Positions 1,155-38,788 of a stretch of 64,000 bases of DNA are shown here, piece after piece. Made by a program: the position numbers and the translations under genes. Source of the DNA: Candidatus Levyibacteriota bacterium. GTDB lineage: Bacteria; Patescibacteriota; Microgenomatia; Levybacterales; UBA12049. Below the pieces are notes generated by a model. That model ran no database searches. It was not told the origin of the DNA and saw only the letters and a list, made by a program, of their open reading frames with translations. The stretch is from NCBI GenBank assembly GCA_016199085.1, contig JACQHJ010000001.1, positions 72,477 through 136,476 on the forward strand, given 5' to 3'. Position 1 is the stretch's first letter. Each line of letters starts with the position of its first letter.

Positions 1155-2249
1155 CTATTTTTCCCAAGGAAAGTGGTCTCTTCCAAAGTGGCCATAAGCA
1201 GAAGTTCTTAAATAAATTGGTCTTTGTAGATTTAATCCTTCAATTATTCCTTCAACAGAGGTATCTAAAAGTTGTTTCATAAAATCCTTTATAACTTTTA
1301 TATTTTTTTTCTCTGTTTGGAAAGTTTCAACATCCTGCATAACGGGTTTTTTAGCTCCGATAAAATAGGCAAGCCTTACTTCTGCTTTGTCTGCAAGTTT
1401 TTCTTTAACAATGTTTTTGGCAAGGTATCTGGCAGCATAAGCCCCACTTCTGTCAACTTTTGTCGGATCTTTTCCGCTAAAAGCTCCTCCCCCAACCCTT
1501 GCATATCCTCCGTATGTGTCAACGATAATTTTCCTTCCAGTCAGTCCTGCGTCTGATGCGGGTCCTGGCATATGCCAAACACCAGTTCCATTTACAATCA
1601 AGTCTTTAATGTTTATCTTAAATCCAAATTCATCCAAAACATACCCTACAACTTCTTTATAAAGGTCTTTTTTAACCTCTTTTATGTCAACATCTTCTCT
1701 GTGGGGAACTGCAATTACAACCTGGAGGATCCTAGAAGGCAGTCCGTTTTTATACTCTATAGTTACCTGAGATTTTCCATCAGGGCGAAGATATTTTAAA
1801 ATCTTTTTCTCTCGGACTTCGTCAATTCTTTGCGTTAATTTATGTGCAATCATTATCGGAAGGGGCATTAATGTTTTTGTTTCCCTGCAGGCAAATCCAA
1901 ACATCATGCCTTGATCTCCTGCGCCTTTTTTCTTTACTCCTTGTGCAATTTCCCTTGATTGTTCGTGGATATATATTTCAATAGGGGATTTGTCGCTAAA
2001 ATTGAAAATATCCTCTGTATATCCTAGGTCTCTTATTCTTTTTCTGGCAACTTTTTCATAGTCTATCTTCGCATTGGCGGTTACTTCTCCCGCAAGAACG
2101 ACTCTGTTAAAGGCAGCCATTGTTTCAACCGCAACTCTTCCATAAGGATCATGTCTTAAGACCTCGTCTAGGATTGCATCCGATATTGAATCACAAATCT
2201 TATCCGGGTGTCCGCTGCAAACTGATTCTGACGTAAAAATATAATCCAT
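1155..2249 (-). CDS. metK: S-adenosylmethionine synthetase
   Basis: GHPDKICDSISDAILDE, GAGDQG and GGGAFSGKDPTKVDRSGAYAARYLAKN signatures. Confidence 0.95.
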   Translation of the reverse strand: MDYIFTSESVCSGHPDKICDSISDAILDEVLRHDPYGRVAVETMAAFNRVVLAGEVTANAKIDYEKVARKRIRDLGYTEDIFNFSDKSPIEIYIHEQSREIAQGVKKKGAGDQGMMFGFACRETKTLMPLPIMIAHKLTQRIDEVREKKILKYLRPDGKSQVTIEYKNGLPSRILQVVIAVPHREDVDIKEVKKDLYKEVVGYVLDEFGFKINIKDLIVNGTGVWHMPGPASDAGLTGRKIIVDTYGGYARVGGGAFSGKDPTKVDRSGAYAARYLAKNIVKEKLADKAEVRLAYFIGAKKPVMQDVETFQTEKKNIKVIKDFMKQLLDTSVEGIIEGLNLQRPIYLRTSAYGHFGRDHFPWEK

Positions 2250-2373
2250 AAAAAAACTCTCAAAAAGAGAGTCAAGATTTTGTCTTTTTAAGACCTCATC
2301 CTCCAGGCACCGTAGTCTTTCTCGGTTGCCGGTCCGCTACTTTGCGGGCTCTCTTGATGAACAATACTTTAAA
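2250..2373 (-). promoter_or_regulatory. SAM-I-family riboswitch-like leader (SAM-I/IV-like, no P4) with an intrinsic terminator, directly upstream of metK
   Basis: Minus-strand RNA UUCAUCAAGAGAGCCCGC..GCGGACCGGCAACC..GGUGCCUGGAGGAUGAGG carries the P1, AAGAG, GCAACC, GGUGCC and GAUGAG core elements. It is followed by CUCUCUUUUUGAGAG plus a U7 tract immediately before the AUG. Confidence 0.55.
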
Positions 2374-3063
2374 TTATTGATTCATTGCATTCTGACATGC
2401 TGCTTTTGCGTCTGCGTCTGTTATTGAATCACAAAGCGATGAATCATAACCTGTTCCCTCATTGTCTTTCATTATTTTTGTCGTTTCTTCCATCATTTTC
2501 GAATAGTCTGTGAATTTAACGTTGGATGGGGGATTAAATTTGGATTGATCAGCTCCCCATGGGTTGCATTTATAATCAAGTTGCTTATTATAGTCAAAAT
2601 ATTTATTTGCCTCATTGGTCTCGGTTTTTAGATCATCTGGGGAAATAGTCATTTTTATCCCGCTTTCCATTTGATCTCCCCAAATATAATTGTCATTGCC
2701 TTTTCTAATCATACTCATATTTGTTACTTTTCCATCTACGGTGGTTTGAAAATCTCCGCGCATATTGCCTGAAGAAACATACACGGTTCCTTTTCCTGAG
2801 AATTCATTATCTGTGCCTGTCATGTCGAAGCTGCAAGTGACATTGGCCCCGCTTGTAATAAGGTTAACCAAGGAATTCATAGCTGAATTTGTGGTTTGCT
2901 CTCCAGAAGTAGTATTTGATGTTTGGTTTTGCTGGGGAGTAGTATTTTTACCAAACATTAAGTATCCGCCAAGCCCAAGCAAAAGAAGAATAATAACTGC
3001 GGCTGCGATAATTAATTGTTTTTGTTTTAACATTAAAAAAGAGTATATAACGCAAATTTTCAA
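2374..3063 (-). CDS. hypothetical secreted or membrane-anchored protein (N-terminal TM, S/T/N-rich, four Cys)
   Basis: Hydrophobic N-terminus AAAVIILLLLGLGGYLMFG followed by a polar domain; no recognisable family. Confidence 0.45.
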   Translation of the reverse strand: MKICVIYSFLMLKQKQLIIAAAVIILLLLGLGGYLMFGKNTTPQQNQTSNTTSGEQTTNSAMNSLVNLITSGANVTCSFDMTGTDNEFSGKGTVYVSSGNMRGDFQTTVDGKVTNMSMIRKGNDNYIWGDQMESGIKMTISPDDLKTETNEANKYFDYNKQLDYKCNPWGADQSKFNPPSNVKFTDYSKMMEETTKIMKDNEGTGYDSSLCDSITDADAKAACQNAMNQ

Positions 3064-3115
3064 TAGTCAATAGTAATTAAAACCCTTGACAAATACATTT
3101 AAAAAAGAGCAATAA

Positions 3116-3304
3116 TTGTATATGGCAAAGAAAGCAGCTAAAAAGACAAAATACGAAAGCTTTAAGCTCTACGGTAAATATGAGAGGGCACAGATTGCAA
3201 TTTTTACAGTAACTGACCTTTTAATAGGTGTAGTTTTGGGATACCTGCTCCAGCCATATATCGCCGCTGCTATTACAGCCTACGCTGCAAATTCCGCCTT
3301 CTAA
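3116..3304 (+). CDS. small hypothetical membrane protein (62 aa)
   Basis: Lys-rich N-terminus and one TM; a TTGACA..AATAAT-like promoter lies just upstream. Confidence 0.3.
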   Translation: MYMAKKAAKKTKYESFKLYGKYERAQIAIFTVTDLLIGVVLGYLLQPYIAAAITAYAANSAF

Positions 3305-4749
3305 ATTCTTGGGAATAGAGATTTTTGTAAGGCTATATCGGTCTTTGTAAATTGGTCGACAATTTTCTTTGCGGTTTGCGGCATAAAAGGCTCAAGTAAA
3401 ATACCAATTTCCACAATCTGATCTACAGCGTGGGCGAGAATTGCCGACAATTCTCTTCCTTTGTGATTGGTTGAGACCTTTAGAAGTTCCCAGGGTTTTT
3501 CCTCATTTATGAATTTATCCAATTTTGTAATTTTTTGAAAAACAAGGCTTAGTGCTTCATTGAACCTAAATTCATCCAATGCTTTTTTATAGTCTTCAAT
3601 AATGTCTATGAAATGGAAATTTTTCTCTCCGGCAAGTGTTTTAAATCCCGAAGTCTCGCATAGCTTACTAACTCTTGCGATTAAATTTCCAAGTCCGTTT
3701 GCCAAATCTGCGTTATAAACTTGCCTAAACTTTTCTTCTGAGAAATCTCCATCACTAAAAGGAGAAAATTTGGAAAGACAGTAATAGCGAAGAGCGTCTG
3801 CTCCGTATTTTTCTATTAAAACACTTGGGTCAATAACGTTTCCTAAACTTTTAGACATTTTCTGTCCGTTAACCGTAAAGTATTCATGGACAAAGATTTT
3901 TTTGGGTAAGAAAAGTCCGGCCGAGATTAAAAATGCAGGCCAATAAACGGCGTGGAATCTGATTATTCCTTTCCCGATAACATGAAGATCTGCTGGCCAC
4001 CATTTTTTATAAAGATTTTCATCGGATCCAAATCCAACCGCTGTTTGGTAAATGTTTAAAGCGTCAAACCAGACATAAACTTTTTGTGTCGGATCGTTAG
4101 GGACCGGAACTCCCCAGTTTTTTGCCCTTTCATTTGATCTTGAAATACTTATATCTTCAAGACCCTTTTTAACAAAGGAGAGCATTTCGTTTCTTCTAAA
4201 GTCAGGAACTATTTCAAGCTCGTTTGATTCAATTAGTTTTAAGATTTTATCAGTATAGTTTGAGAGTTTGAAAAAATAGTTTTCTTCGCTTACTTCTTCA
4301 AGTGGTTTTCCCGGGTGTTCATGGCACTCTCCGTTTTCATCAAGTTCTTCTTTGGTATAAAACTGCTCGCATCCTACGCAATAAAGACCTTTATACGATT
4401 TCTTATAAATATCTTTTTGACAAAGTTGCCAAAGTTTCTGGGAGGATTTGATGTGTTTTTCTTCGCTTCCTTTGACTATGCTGTCAAATTTAATACCAAG
4501 TTTTTCCCAAAGATCCAAAAAAAGCTTTCCGTTTTTATCAACCAGCTCCTGAACGGTTATTCTTTCTTCTTCTGCAGCCTGGACATTTTTTAAAGAGTTT
4601 TCGTCATAGCCACATGACAAAAAAACGTCTTTTCCAAGAGTTTTTTGATACCTTGCAATCGTGTCTGATTGAATAAATTCAAGCGCATGGCCCAGGTGGG
4701 GCCTAAAATTCACGTATGGTATTGCGTTTGTAATATAGTATTTGTTCAT
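3301..4749 (-). CDS. metG: methionyl-tRNA synthetase, compact form
   Basis: HIGH-type motif PHLGHALE near the N-terminus and KMSKSLGNVI; 482 aa with no C-terminal appended domain. Confidence 0.9.
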   Translation of the reverse strand: MNKYYITNAIPYVNFRPHLGHALEFIQSDTIARYQKTLGKDVFLSCGYDENSLKNVQAAEEERITVQELVDKNGKLFLDLWEKLGIKFDSIVKGSEEKHIKSSQKLWQLCQKDIYKKSYKGLYCVGCEQFYTKEELDENGECHEHPGKPLEEVSEENYFFKLSNYTDKILKLIESNELEIVPDFRRNEMLSFVKKGLEDISISRSNERAKNWGVPVPNDPTQKVYVWFDALNIYQTAVGFGSDENLYKKWWPADLHVIGKGIIRFHAVYWPAFLISAGLFLPKKIFVHEYFTVNGQKMSKSLGNVIDPSVLIEKYGADALRYYCLSKFSPFSDGDFSEEKFRQVYNADLANGLGNLIARVSKLCETSGFKTLAGEKNFHFIDIIEDYKKALDEFRFNEALSLVFQKITKLDKFINEEKPWELLKVSTNHKGRELSAILAHAVDQIVEIGILLEPFMPQTAKKIVDQFTKTDIALQKSLFPRI

Positions 4750-23484: not shown

Positions 23485-25593
23485 ATGGCAAAAAGAAGAC
23501 ACTACCAAAAACAAAAGTTTAAGATTAAGCTAAAGAAAAATACTGTTTATTCCATTTTTGCCTTTGGAGTAATCCTTTCCGGAATTCTTCTTGGTTCCTC
23601 TTTTGCAAAGACAGGTCCGGCACTAACTACGATTAATGATTATATAAAAGCCTATTTTGGCTTTTTATCATTTTTAGTCCCAATACTTTTAATAATCTTG
23701 GGTTTTTTCTTTTTAAGGCTAAAATTGTTTCTTTCAAGGCCAAACGTAAGTGTTGGATTCTTTATTCTGCTTTTATCCCTTCTTGGCCTTACCAAAGAAG
23801 GAATGATAGGAAACTATCTAAACCAGCTGATCGCCGAAGTCTTAAACGGATTCGGAGCTTTTGCAATTTACCTTGCAGGAGTATTGATAGGTATTATTGT
23901 CTTGTTTGATACTTCTTTAGATGAAGTATTCCAGGTAATATCTGCGGTCTTAGGCTTTATTCCAAAACTATTCCCAGGTAGAATTCTCGCCTTTTTCCAG
24001 AAAAAACAAATTCCTGCATTAGGGAACAAAGAAATGGTCATAAAAGGAATGGAGGACAACAAAAATAAAGATATTAAAATTAACTCAAACGTTGTCAAAA
24101 AAGACGAACCGTTCATTTCGGATAAGTTGGTTATGAATACTCCGGGAAAGCCGGGTGTTTGGAAGCTTCCCCCTTTGGATCTTTTATCCTCTGACAGTTC
24201 TCAAAAAGCAGATAGGGGAGACGTCAAAAAAATTGCGACCTTGATTGAAGATACTTTAAAAAGCTTTGGAATCGGAGCAAGGGTCGTTGAAGTCAACCTT
24301 GGTCCGGCCGTCACCCAGTATGCCTTACAGATTCCTCTTGGAACAAAAGTCTCCAAGATTACAAACCTTGCAAACGATTTGGCATTAAACACAGAAGCTC
24401 CAACAGGACAAATTAGGATTGAAGCGCCGATTCCAGGCAGAAACTTGGTTGGCGTTGAAATTCCGAATAAGTCTTTGGAAGTAGTCTCGTTAAGAACAAT
24501 GTTGTCTTCCGAGCCAATGAGAAAGAGCAAGTCAAAACTTGCGGTATCCCTTGGTCTTGATGTATCAGGAAATCCTTTGCTTGCCGATATTGGGAAAATG
24601 CCCCACGTTTTAATTGCTGGAACTACAGGCAGCGGAAAATCGGTTATGATAAACAGTTTCATAGCTTCACTTTTGTTTAGGGCAACACCCGATGAGATAA
24701 GGATAATTATGATTGATCCTAAAAGAGTTGAACTTACGGGTTATAACGGCATTCCTCATCTAATGACACCAGTCATTGTTGAGGTAGATAAGATTTTGGC
24801 TTCTTTAAAGTGGGCAATGAGTGAGATGGACAGAAGATACAAGACTTTTGCAGAACATGGAGTCAGAAACATTGATTCATATAATGAGCTGGCGGGGTTC
24901 CAAAGACTTCCTTATATTGTTATTTTCATTGACGAACTTGCAGATTTAATGGCTTATGCTCCTGTCGAGGTTGAAGATGCTATTGCAAGGCTTGCCCAGA
25001 TGGCAAGAGCCACAGGAATCCATTTAGTAGTCTCAACGCAGCGTCCATCTGTTGACGTTATCACAGGTCTTATCAAGGCAAATATTCCCTGCCGTATTGC
25101 CTTTAACGTTTCCTCCATGATTGACTCCCGTGTCATCATCGATATGCCCGGTGCTGAAAAACTCTTAGGTCGTGGGGACATGTTGTATATCCCTCCTGAT
25201 CAGGCAAAACCATCGCGCATCCAGGGAGCATTTGTTTCGGAAAAAGAAGTAAGAGGATTGGTTGATTTTCTCAAAAATGAAAATCCACCTGTACAATACA
25301 CAGAAGAAGTATTGGCAGAACCTCTTATTGCCGCCAAAAAAGGCATGGCTTCAATGGGGGGGGACGGAAAAGATGCGCTTTTTGATGAGTCCGTCAGAAT
25401 TATCTGCCAGCACGATAAAGCATCGGCATCGCTACTGCAAAGAAGACTATCAATTGGTTATTCAAGGGCGGCCAGAATACTAGACCAGCTTGAAGCAGTA
25501 GGAGCTGTAGGAAGACAAGAAGGAAGTAAACCAAGGGACGTTTTAATTACGAACGCTGATGAATTCATCGCAAATGTAAGTCAAAATCAGTAA
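23485..25593 (+). CDS. ftsK: DNA translocase FtsK/SpoIIIE
   Basis: N-terminal TM helices, Walker A GTTGSGKSV and a C-terminal gamma wHTH LLQRRLSIGYSRAARILDQLE. Confidence 0.9.
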   Translation: MAKRRHYQKQKFKIKLKKNTVYSIFAFGVILSGILLGSSFAKTGPALTTINDYIKAYFGFLSFLVPILLIILGFFFLRLKLFLSRPNVSVGFFILLLSLLGLTKEGMIGNYLNQLIAEVLNGFGAFAIYLAGVLIGIIVLFDTSLDEVFQVISAVLGFIPKLFPGRILAFFQKKQIPALGNKEMVIKGMEDNKNKDIKINSNVVKKDEPFISDKLVMNTPGKPGVWKLPPLDLLSSDSSQKADRGDVKKIATLIEDTLKSFGIGARVVEVNLGPAVTQYALQIPLGTKVSKITNLANDLALNTEAPTGQIRIEAPIPGRNLVGVEIPNKSLEVVSLRTMLSSEPMRKSKSKLAVSLGLDVSGNPLLADIGKMPHVLIAGTTGSGKSVMINSFIASLLFRATPDEIRIIMIDPKRVELTGYNGIPHLMTPVIVEVDKILASLKWAMSEMDRRYKTFAEHGVRNIDSYNELAGFQRLPYIVIFIDELADLMAYAPVEVEDAIARLAQMARATGIHLVVSTQRPSVDVITGLIKANIPCRIAFNVSSMIDSRVIIDMPGAEKLLGRGDMLYIPPDQAKPSRIQGAFVSEKEVRGLVDFLKNENPPVQYTEEVLAEPLIAAKKGMASMGGDGKDALFDESVRIICQHDKASASLLQRRLSIGYSRAARILDQLEAVGAVGRQEGSKPRDVLITNADEFIANVSQNQ

Positions 25594-32310: not shown

Positions 32311-34107
32311 TTAATCTACTTTGGCATAGATTCTTTTATATCCTTTACCTAAATTCTCTTGCTTTATTATTCTAAAACTTTTAATCGCTCCTGTAAACTC
32401 AACGTGCGGCCCTCCGCAAAATTCCCTGGAATAATCTCCTATAAAATACACCTTTACATTATCAGAATACTTTTCATCAAACAGTCCTATGGCTCCAAGC
32501 TCCTTAGCCTTGGCAAGAGGCATAATTTCAAAGTGGACAGGGAGGTTGTCTTTAATTTTACCTCTTACTATTTCTTCAACCTTTCGAAGTTCTCCTTCGG
32601 AGAGCATTTTGTCGTGGTTAAAGTCAAAGCGGAGACGCTCTGAGGTTATATTACTTCCAGATTGGTGGAGTTTATCTCCAAAGATGTCTCTTAATGCCTG
32701 GTGTAAAAGATGTGTTGCAGTGTGTCCTTTGATTGTTAGCTCGGAAGTATCAGCAAGGCCACCTTTAAACATGCCTGAAGAGGCTGTTTTGGATAATTCT
32801 TTGTGTTTTTCCATTGAATCAGCAAATTCTTGATCGTTAAAGGTGTAACCCATGCTTTTTATCTGTGTTGGGGAAAGTCCATATGATGTATAGAGATTAA
32901 AGGCAGTTTCTGCAGAAATGATCTTAAATCCTTTAAGCTCATCTCCTACTTCGATTTCATCTTTAACATTAATCTCTAAAAATTTCTTTGCCTCACTCAG
33001 AGCCTTTTTATATTTTTGGCCTTCTTCTAATATGGAATTTTTAATGAGTTCAAAGTTTGCTTTAAGGCTTTCGTCTGTTTTAGAGCATTCTTCTACAATT
33101 GCAGTGAGAATAGAGGAGAGTTGATCTTGGTTTACCTCTCCCAGGTTATCGATGGCTCTTCTTATCAGTCTTCGAAGGATATATCCTCTTTCTTTATTAG
33201 ACGGTTCTACTTTTGCATCAAGAAGGTAAGCTGAGGCACGAAGGTGGTCTGCAATGATTCTAAACTCTCTTTGGTTTTCTTTGTAGGATTTAGAAGTTGC
33301 GGATTCAATAGCGTCAATGATTGGTTTAAAAAGAGAAGTTTGGAAAATATCAGACTTATTTTCTACTGCAGCCAATAATCTTTCAACTCCTCCTCCAAAA
33401 TCAACGTTTTTGTTAGGTAATTCTTTAAACCCGTCTTCTGTTTTTATGTATTGCATAAAGACAGAATTGGCAATTTCTGAAAATTTACCACATTCACATT
33501 TAACAGGATTATCGCCTTCACATTTATCAGTATGTTCAATATCGTCGAATCTAAAATATACTTCTGTATCCGGTCCTCCAGGTTCACCGATTGGCATTTT
33601 GTCAGGGGTTCCACTTCTTGACCACCAGTTAGTATCATCTGCAAAAATTCTATCTTCAAGTCCTTCTTTTACTAGTACATCTTTCCAGATCTTTTCTGCT
33701 TCAGTGTCATAGCCAATATTTTCATATCCATTAAAAACAGATATATATAGTTTTTCTTTAGGTAACCTTAGCTCTTTGGTTAGAAATTCCCAAAGCCAGG
33801 GGATTTCTTCGGATTTGAAATAATCTCCCAAGGACCAGTTGCCTAGCATTCTGAAAAATGTTGTATGCCTATTATCTCCAACTTCTTCAATATCAACTGC
33901 TCTGAAGCAATTTTGTACGTCAACAAGCCTGTTTCCAGAAGGGTGAGGTTCGCCTAAAAGATATGGAACCAGTGGCTGCATGCCGGAAGAGGTGAAAAGA
34001 GTTGTTGGATCATTCTCTGGAACCAAAGGAGAGTTGGTAATTTGTTTATGTTTTCTTTTTTCAAAAAAAGAAATATAAACGTCTATTATTTGCTTAGTAC
34101 TTAACAT
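32311..34107 (-). CDS. alaS: alanyl-tRNA synthetase, compact (no C-Ala domain)
   Basis: FTSSGMQP and FFRMLGNWSLGDYFK class II motifs; editing-domain motifs HTATHLLHQAL and CGGPHV. Confidence 0.85.
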   Translation of the reverse strand: MLSTKQIIDVYISFFEKRKHKQITNSPLVPENDPTTLFTSSGMQPLVPYLLGEPHPSGNRLVDVQNCFRAVDIEEVGDNRHTTFFRMLGNWSLGDYFKSEEIPWLWEFLTKELRLPKEKLYISVFNGYENIGYDTEAEKIWKDVLVKEGLEDRIFADDTNWWSRSGTPDKMPIGEPGGPDTEVYFRFDDIEHTDKCEGDNPVKCECGKFSEIANSVFMQYIKTEDGFKELPNKNVDFGGGVERLLAAVENKSDIFQTSLFKPIIDAIESATSKSYKENQREFRIIADHLRASAYLLDAKVEPSNKERGYILRRLIRRAIDNLGEVNQDQLSSILTAIVEECSKTDESLKANFELIKNSILEEGQKYKKALSEAKKFLEINVKDEIEVGDELKGFKIISAETAFNLYTSYGLSPTQIKSMGYTFNDQEFADSMEKHKELSKTASSGMFKGGLADTSELTIKGHTATHLLHQALRDIFGDKLHQSGSNITSERLRFDFNHDKMLSEGELRKVEEIVRGKIKDNLPVHFEIMPLAKAKELGAIGLFDEKYSDNVKVYFIGDYSREFCGGPHVEFTGAIKSFRIIKQENLGKGYKRIYAKVD

Positions 34108-38110: not shown

Positions 38111-38788
38111 TTACGAATGGCGGATGCCATACCAGCACATACACCAAGCGTAGTCTTTTTGTTCAATCCTGCTTGTGCAATCCTTGATAGGAAGTATTGG
38201 ATTATTCTTCAATTCATCAGCTGTATATTTTTTGCCCTGATACTTACTGCATTCTTCACAGCAATCCTGCGTTTCAACTTCAAAATAAGTGGGTAAAATA
38301 CCACCGATAGTGCCTAATTGAATTTCATAGTTATGAACGGATTTTAAGTAACTATAAGGGTCATGTCCTCTACGCAATTGATAAAGTGCCTGTGCAAAAG
38401 CTATCATTTTTGCATGGTGTAAAATACTTGATCTCTTGTCATAATCATTCTCAATTTCAGGCGGATGTCCCACCAATCTATTAGAGACTCCCCATACTAT
38501 GTCGTAGGATTTTGGTTTTGTTCCCCATTTTTTGGATAATTCAGCCTCAATTTTTAAATAATCATTAACAGTAGCTCCTAAATATTGGAGTTCTTTAAAA
38601 AAATCTGCCGCTAGGGCATCCTCCTGCGTTAAAATATCTGAATTAAATATGGTTTGTGTGGTTCTAATGAAACATTCTTCACCACATTTTTCGCATTTAG
38701 TCTTTCTCTTAGGTAGTTTCTCAAAAATAGCTCCGCAATATGGGCATTTATTGCGGTTTCTATCATCTTTTTTTTCGAATAGTCCCAT
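38111..38788 (-). CDS. hypothetical protein with an N-terminal Zn-ribbon (CPYCG..CEKCG) and a Cys-rich C-terminus
   Basis: CxxC pairs at both ends; no recognisable family. Confidence 0.4.
   Translation of the reverse strand: MGLFEKKDDRNRNKCPYCGAIFEKLPKRKTKCEKCGEECFIRTTQTIFNSDILTQEDALAADFFKELQYLGATVNDYLKIEAELSKKWGTKPKSYDIVWGVSNRLVGHPPEIENDYDKRSSILHHAKMIAFAQALYQLRRGHDPYSYLKSVHNYEIQLGTIGGILPTYFEVETQDCCEECSKYQGKKYTADELKNNPILPIKDCTSRIEQKDYAWCMCWYGIRHS

Follow-up and report, generated by a model that had tools for sequence, protein, structure and literature searches.

The leader of the metK gene in a genome of Candidatus Levybacteria (Patescibacteria) belongs to the known SAM-I/IV riboswitch family, of which it is an ordinary representative with a good score. 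In all likelihood it operates as a SAM riboswitch of this class, switching the gene off by means of a terminator hairpin located beside the start codon. The window (the whole stretch of DNA analyzed, 64 kb in length) was scanned on both strands with Rfam models, and two matches above the gathering score were obtained: one tRNA and RF01725, the model of the SAM-I/IV aptamer. The RF01725 match is found on the minus strand (2266..2365), covers the full length of the model (positions 1-99) and reaches 55.6 bits, compared with a gathering score of 41.1. Its E-value is 2e-6 when cmscan is run on the window and 1.1e-8 on a local segment of 351 nt. Within the SAM clan (CL00012), RF01725 is the best and sole match above threshold at the metK leader; the scan retains the best match per clan, and a lower-scoring, overlapping match of the same clan was discarded in its favor. 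RF01725 is reportedly the 'SAM-I-IV-variant' of Weinberg et al. 2010. Other environmental SAM-I/IV elements, fetched with the core pattern, score 46-67 bits; the score of the window is therefore mid-range, and the leader can be viewed as a typical member of the family. From this membership we infer that the leader binds SAM.

The gene under presumed control lies directly downstream. It is an ORF on the minus strand (1155..2249, with its AUG at 2249-2247) that encodes S-adenosylmethionine synthetase, a product of 364 aa carrying the three Pfam domains of MetK (PF00438, PF02772 and PF02773) and 100% identical to the NCBI entry 'methionine adenosyltransferase [Candidatus Levybacteria bacterium]', a protein from a MAG. 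At 74% identity or more, this MetK has over 120 related cluster representatives, an indication that a large Patescibacteria clade is involved. The sequence of the minus strand from 2364 to 2247 reads UUGUUCAUCAAGAGAGCCCGCAAAGUAGCGGACCGGCAACCGAGAAAGACUACGGUGCCUGGAGGAUGAGGUCUUAAAAAGACAAAAUCUUGACUCUCUUUUUGAGAGUUUUUUUAUG. Altogether, the family match and the gene context bear out the initial annotation, which had placed a variant of the SAM-I family upstream of metK.

Aptamer fold and conservation of the leader

From P1 to the P1 3′ strand, the window matches all upper-case consensus bases of RF01725; A63 of J3/1 in the model falls on the single deleted column of the alignment. The core columns are invariant in the clade alignment. 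Alignment to the model places the P1 5′ strand, UCAUC, at 2356..2360 and the P1 3′ strand, GAUGA, at 2296..2300, within a GAUGAGG motif (2300-2294). J1/2 is AAGA (2352..2355), invariant in the clade alignment, and together with G2351 it makes up the conserved AAGAG (2355-2351). P2 (2331..2351) is aligned to the model as a simple hairpin with a CCGC/GCGG core, an AAAGUA loop and one C.A mismatch; it is a single helix, with neither an internal loop nor a K-turn. The CGGCAACC motif (2331-2324) comes next, and P3 (2306..2330), supported by both the model alignment and RNAalifold, is short and shows the conserved GGCAACC...GGUGCC arrangement, with GGUGCC at 2311-2306. Its loop, L3, is AAAGA. J3/1 is the pentanucleotide UGGAG (2301..2305), and no hairpin is found inside the junction. 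Hence, the motifs listed by the initial annotation (UCAUC-AAGAG, CCGC/GCGG, CGGCAACC, P3, GGUGCC and GAUGAGG) are all present on the minus strand and in the order given.

That annotation had also described the leader as devoid of P4. For the junction this description holds, given the 5 nt of J3/1; for the leader as a whole it does not, as a hairpin 3′ of P1 with the sequence GUCU(U)-AAA-(A)AGAC (2282..2294) aligns with the 3′ hairpin of the model and represents P4 of SAM-I/IV in its relocated position. Past this hairpin lie an A-rich linker, AAAA (2281-2278), and the tetranucleotide UCUU (2277-2274), a segment (2274..2281) recognized by duplex permutation and by minimum free energy (MFE) folding. 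UCUU would be the 3′ strand of the PK-2 pseudoknot, and the L3-tail duplex test identifies AAGA of L3 (2319-2316) as its 5′ strand. The earlier call of a SAM-I/IV fold was thus essentially right, with two parts missed: the external P4 hairpin and PK-2.

Covariation in homologous leaders was found for P1, P2, P4 and PK-2. RNAalifold, run on 13 clade leaders, recovered P1, P2 and P3 with compensatory changes at 7 of 16 pairs, among them the outer two pairs of P1 and pairs of P2. In the MAFFT alignment of aptamer and tail, P1 to P3 were well aligned and P4 and the tail were scrambled; for this reason, P4 and PK-2 were judged by direct reading and by permutation of duplex energies instead of column counts. 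Direct reading of P4, which is GUCU/AGAC in the window, revealed compensatory variants in relatives: GUCC/GGAC, AUCC/GGAU, UCCUU/AAGGA, UUCUU/AAGAA and GUCGUC/GACGAC. For PK-2, cognate L3-tail duplexes of the clade leaders had a mean energy of -3.78 kcal/mol versus -2.81 kcal/mol for swapped partners (permutation p 0.0025; the leaders compared are related, not independent, and such p-values overstate the support). The pairs read in relatives are AGAC/GUCU, AGAU/AUCU, AAAGAU/AUCUUU, GAUU/AAUC, UGUUUU/AAAACA and AAGCUU/AAGCUU. The AAGA/UCUU combination of the window offers four possible pairs only, and PK-2 is therefore rated as likely in this leader.

Orthologous leaders were gathered in three ways: a protein-guided scan of contigs (among the matches listed), a pattern scan of metagenomes and look-ups of MetK homologues. 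RF01725 is found at or above 41.1 bits in at least 14 related metK leaders (L205, L145, L201, L211, L192, L202, L209, L204, L213, L148, L207, L002, L087 and L206) and is the best match, below threshold, in seven more (L097, L212, L208, L195, L108, L001 and L214). Levybacteria-type metK leaders above threshold score 42-60 bits. Conservation extends to the neighborhood: across the clade, metG (methionyl-tRNA synthetase) precedes metK, in some cases with a small hypothetical gene in between, as seen in the window (metG at 3301-4749, minus strand) and in L201, L202, L204, L205, L208, L209, L211 and L213.

A large freshwater group with RF01725 scores of 65-67 bits was also detected (L082, L083, L085, L088, L111, L126 and many others of L081-L200). 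In this group, a 3′ tail, GCGACAAA, is complementary to the P2 loop and 3′ arm, UUUGUCGC, and covaries with it (UUAGUC with GACUAA). After the tail comes a CCCACC/GGUGGG terminator with a 3′ arm similar to GGUG of the core. A tentative interpretation of the sequences is that the tail may follow a different pairing scheme or form an anti-aptamer helix.

Predicted terminator hairpin and proposed antiterminator

The terminator scan independently reports a hairpin of seven pairs followed by a T-run at 2255..2273 (GACUCUC-UUUUU-GAGAGUU). It contains the CUCUC-UUUUU-GAGAG hairpin (2271-2257) already described in the initial annotation, and the U7 tract (2250..2256) adjoins the start codon, again as described there. 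The stem is weak for a terminator, with three G-C pairs out of seven and with A-U and G.U as the outer two pairs. As judged from the sequence, the element nonetheless has the features expected of a predicted intrinsic terminator: a hairpin containing G+C, a U-run directly after it and a conserved position relative to the aptamer. The arms covary in relatives (CCUCUC/GAGAGG, CCUCUU/AAGAGG, CCUCUUG/CAAGAGG and CCUCUUUU/AAAAGAGG), and a run of U6-U7 is present in 19 of the 20 clade leaders that have the hairpin, in most of them directly followed by AUG. In L148, L003 and L087, the hairpin with its U-tract does not adjoin the start codon: about 110, 115 and 30 nt, respectively, separate it from metK downstream, an arrangement that makes sense only for a terminator and argues for real transcription termination. 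Conservation, compensatory changes in the arms and these detached hairpins all support the terminator reading of the initial annotation, and metK is most likely shut off through the hairpin next to its start codon.

A purely translational mechanism deserves consideration at this point. In such a scheme, the aptamer would be the same, and the CUCUC/GAGAG hairpin would mask the ribosome-binding site (GAGAG, at a distance of 7 nt from the AUG) in the absence of any termination. The abutment of U-tract and AUG does place the 3′ arm of the hairpin at Shine-Dalgarno distance, and relatives show GAGAGG, GAGGGG or AAGAGG in that arm; the weakness of the stem and the lack of a clean U-tract after the hairpin of L209 point in the same direction. 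Furthermore, two leaders of the same clade have no terminator, and their start region is covered instead by PK-2 or by P4: in L002 (2387-2476), the PK-2 3′ strand, AAGCUU, directly abuts the AUG, and in L212 (1087-1221), the loop of the external hairpin contains the AUG. Close relatives thus alternate between translational and transcriptional platforms. However, neither the nearly universal U-run nor the detached hairpins would be expected from translational control alone, and L148 and L087 carry a separate Shine-Dalgarno-like sequence. In addition, a motif of this kind is rare in the window (9 of 39 long ORFs, the remaining 30 being devoid of it), and the arm in the window is GAGAG rather than GAGG. 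We consider translational control without termination improbable. GAGAG is not claimed as a Shine-Dalgarno sequence, in view of the scarcity of such motifs. Transcription termination remains the preferred reading, to which a second, translational layer of control can plausibly be added in the window because the U-run abuts the AUG and the hairpin covers the ribosome-binding region.

In many ORFs of the window, the ATG is preceded at a distance of only 8-17 nt by a TATAAT-like box. Examples with such a box and no Shine-Dalgarno sequence are the plus-strand starts at 23485, 34223, 43475 and 57079 and the minus-strand ORFs 32311-34107 and 38111-38788 (starts at 34107 and 38788). Combined with the absence of Shine-Dalgarno motifs in most long ORFs, the proximity of these boxes to the ATG suggests that leaderless mRNAs, or mRNAs with very short leaders, occur in this genome.

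The two folds of the leader were compared by their energies. The unconstrained MFE structure (-37.5 kcal/mol) contains neither the aptamer nor the terminator: it is an antiterminator fold with a helix between AAGAGAG (2355-2349), which comprises J1/2 and the start of P2, and CUCUCUU (2271-2265) of the terminator 5′ arm and loop. A second pairing, of AGGAU (2302-2298; J3/1 and P1 3′ strand) with AUCUU (2278-2274; PK-2 tail), extends P4. Enforcing P1 and the terminator yields -34.4 kcal/mol. For a transcript that has reached the decision point (103 nt) and still lacks the 3′ arm, the antiterminator has -33.9 kcal/mol versus -25.5 kcal/mol for the enforced fold. Because the antiterminator fold is lower in energy, read-through would be the default state, and the ligand would pay for P1, PK-2 and the terminator. 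This is the logic expected for an OFF switch acting on metK.

Folding at the decision point produced the same long-range helix in 17 of 20 clade leaders. The helix has 7 bp in the window, 9 pairs in L001 and L209, 10 in L205 and L213, and 10 perfect pairs in L108 and L148 (AUCAAGAGAG with CUCUCUUGAU). When the 5′ region was paired with the terminator half, cognate duplexes outperformed swapped partners (p 0.002, with the same overstatement that relatedness of the leaders imposes on permutation values). In 11 of 20 leaders, the real terminator loop outdid 95% or more of the random loops; the UUUUU loop of the window was not significantly better than random loops (p 0.13). Compensatory examples include UGAU/AUCA versus UGAC/GUCA (L202, L204) and AAGAG/CUCUU versus ACGAG/CUCG (L214). 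As J1/2 is purine-rich and the arm is pyrimidine-rich, their complementarity is in part to be expected if the 3′ arm is required to look like a Shine-Dalgarno sequence. When the 5′ region and the terminator were aligned as a composite, the antiterminator was found in at least two registers owing to an AUCAUCA repeat, so that covarying pairs cannot be counted on a single consensus structure. Taking folding and comparative analysis together, we infer the existence of a ligand-free antiterminator. MFE folding did not pick the classic alternative, a helix between GAGG(U) of the P1 3′ strand and (A)CCUC in the terminator arm; this pairing has 4-5 bp in several relatives and can be drawn in the window only with a bulge.

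The proposed switch would operate as follows. Upon SAM binding, P1 (UCAUC/GAUGA) would close the three-way junction of P1, P2 and P3, and the external P4 and the L3-tail PK-2 (AAGA/UCUU) would form. CUCUC would then be free to pair with GAGAG, giving rise to the hairpin-U7 terminator just before the AUG; any transcript escaping termination would have its ribosome-binding region buried in the same hairpin. Without SAM, AAGAGAG would capture the CUCUCUU segment, joined in relatives by the adjacent P1 5′ strand, and AGGAU of the P1 3′ strand would pair with the AUCUU tail of PK-2. Under such circumstances the terminator could not form, and metK would be transcribed and translated.

Transcription of the leader

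The window lacks 33 nt that are present in its three nearest relatives, L201 (1040-1090), L145 and L192, the junction being located at about 2362/2363 (2361-2376). The 33 nt contain, in these relatives, a TTGACA-17-TTAAAT promoter that directly precedes P1. The aptamer of the window starts about 10 nt past the stop codon (2376-2374) of the upstream ORF (2374-3063), and a promoter scan detected no promoter-like site between that ORF and P1. Since a dedicated promoter is missing, transcription must come from upstream, where the upstream gene has a promoter-like site at 3070..3042. On sequence grounds, the aptamer probably acts on read-through transcripts initiated there.

One might argue that loss of its promoter, with no substitute between the upstream ORF and P1, has turned the leader into a decaying or bypassed element with an intact aptamer sequence and no regulation, but we deem this extremely unlikely, as the conserved core nucleotides and helices are all intact, the Rfam score is second only to that of L205 among clade leaders, and a switch of the terminator type works equally well on read-through from the upstream gene and its promoter-like site.

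Internal P4 and comparison with known SAM riboswitches

Two types of J3/1 are found among relatives. J3/1 is short (4-5 nt) in the window and in L192, L145, L201, L202, L204, L205, L207, L208, L097, L108, L148 and L002. In L206, L209, L211, L212, L213, L214, L001 and L003, it contains an internal mini-hairpin of the SAM-I type with 3-4 bp (AUUCC-loop-GGAAGAUG). Leaders of both types have an unsplit P2, an external hairpin and a candidate PK-2, with the exception of L003, where no PK-2 pairing is evident and no Rfam match is obtained. All other leaders with an internal P4 have RF01725 as their best match, and four of them (L206, L209, L211 and L213) are at or above the gathering score. In a neighbor-joining tree of MetK, built without bootstrap values, the two types are interspersed among each other, and classic SAM-I is found in the sister group. 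This interleaving suggests that a vestigial internal P4 may have been lost repeatedly among Levybacteria-type leaders.

A broader scenario, which we put forward tentatively and hold to be somewhat short of an even chance, is that the architecture changed in situ: a SAM-I ancestor would have gained PK-2 and then lost P4 repeatedly, thus giving rise to SAM-I/IV in this lineage. The same scenario includes the unusual antiterminator, with the J1/2 region (in relatives, also the adjacent P1 5′ strand) mimicked by the terminator 3′ arm.

Feedback of SAM on metK through a described riboswitch class is, in itself, routine annotation with a modest evolutionary and mechanistic angle. On the evolutionary side, it documents SAM-I/IV in Patescibacteria, an under-studied phylum; in the literature searched, we found no description of native SAM riboswitches from this phylum. 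The leaders also make up a natural set whose sole difference is whether a vestigial P4 is kept, and this makes them useful for studying how the peripheries of SAM-I, SAM-I/IV and SAM-IV evolved. On the mechanistic side, the platform is compact, with terminator, ribosome-binding region and start codon fused. Patescibacteria of this kind have very small genomes. Ligand-controlled elements have been proposed as tools for such organisms (PMC11665869).

The closest known system is SAM-I/IV itself, whose architecture has been described (PMC6890682; PMC2864571). The class lacks P4 in the junction and has a P4 helix after P1 that forms, with a pseudoknot between the P3 loop and the 3′ end, the 'PK-2 subdomain' (PMC6890682; PMC8525861, summarizing Trausch et al. 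2014). SAM binding stabilizes PK-2, which is needed for regulation (PMC8525861, summarizing Trausch et al. 2014), and P2 is devoid of an internal loop (PMC2864571). The window shares the core of SAM-I type (CAUC-AAGAG, CAACC, GGUG and GAUG), the unsplit P2, the absence of a junction hairpin, and the hairpin 3′ of P1 followed by an A-rich linker and a likely L3-tail PK-2; like other members, it lies upstream of a gene of SAM metabolism and scores above the gathering threshold. Differences are also observed. SAM-I/IV has been described from 'several phyla, marine', mostly from metagenomes (PMC2864571), whereas the host of the window belongs to the Patescibacteria (Candidatus Levybacteria). In the window, a predicted intrinsic terminator that merges with the start codon serves as the expression platform, and the proposed antiterminator draws on J1/2 plus the initial bases of P2 (in relatives, also on the P1 5′ strand); sister leaders keep an internal P4 of 3-4 bp. 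Crystal structures of SAM-I/IV are 4L81/4OQU (env87).

SAM-IV (RF00634) resembles the window in having a hairpin 3′ of P1 and a PK-2 that runs from the P3 loop to the 3′ end (PMC6890682). It differs in its P2, which is split into P2a and P2b, and in the presence of PK-1 besides PK-2 (PMC6890682); neither trait is found in the window, whose best match in the clan is RF01725.

SAM-I (S-box, RF00162) and the window agree in the core motifs for ligand binding and in the OFF logic, exerted on metK via a terminator. Unlike SAM-I, the window shows none of the three hallmarks of the class (P4 in a four-way junction, a K-turn or internal loop in P2, and an L2-J3/4 pseudoknot) within 2365-2296. Classic SAM-I leaders with the U-tract adjoining the AUG are, however, found upstream of metK in distant Patescibacteria (L004-L008 and L063). 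Leaders L004-L008 (MetK identity 56-61%) have a K-turn-like P2, a palindromic CUAG L2-J3/4 pseudoknot and a full P4, and their terminator U-run leads straight into the AUG. In these SAM-I leaders, the apparent partner of the terminator 5′ arm is the P1 3′ strand, whereas the corresponding arm of the window would pair with J1/2 and the start of P2.
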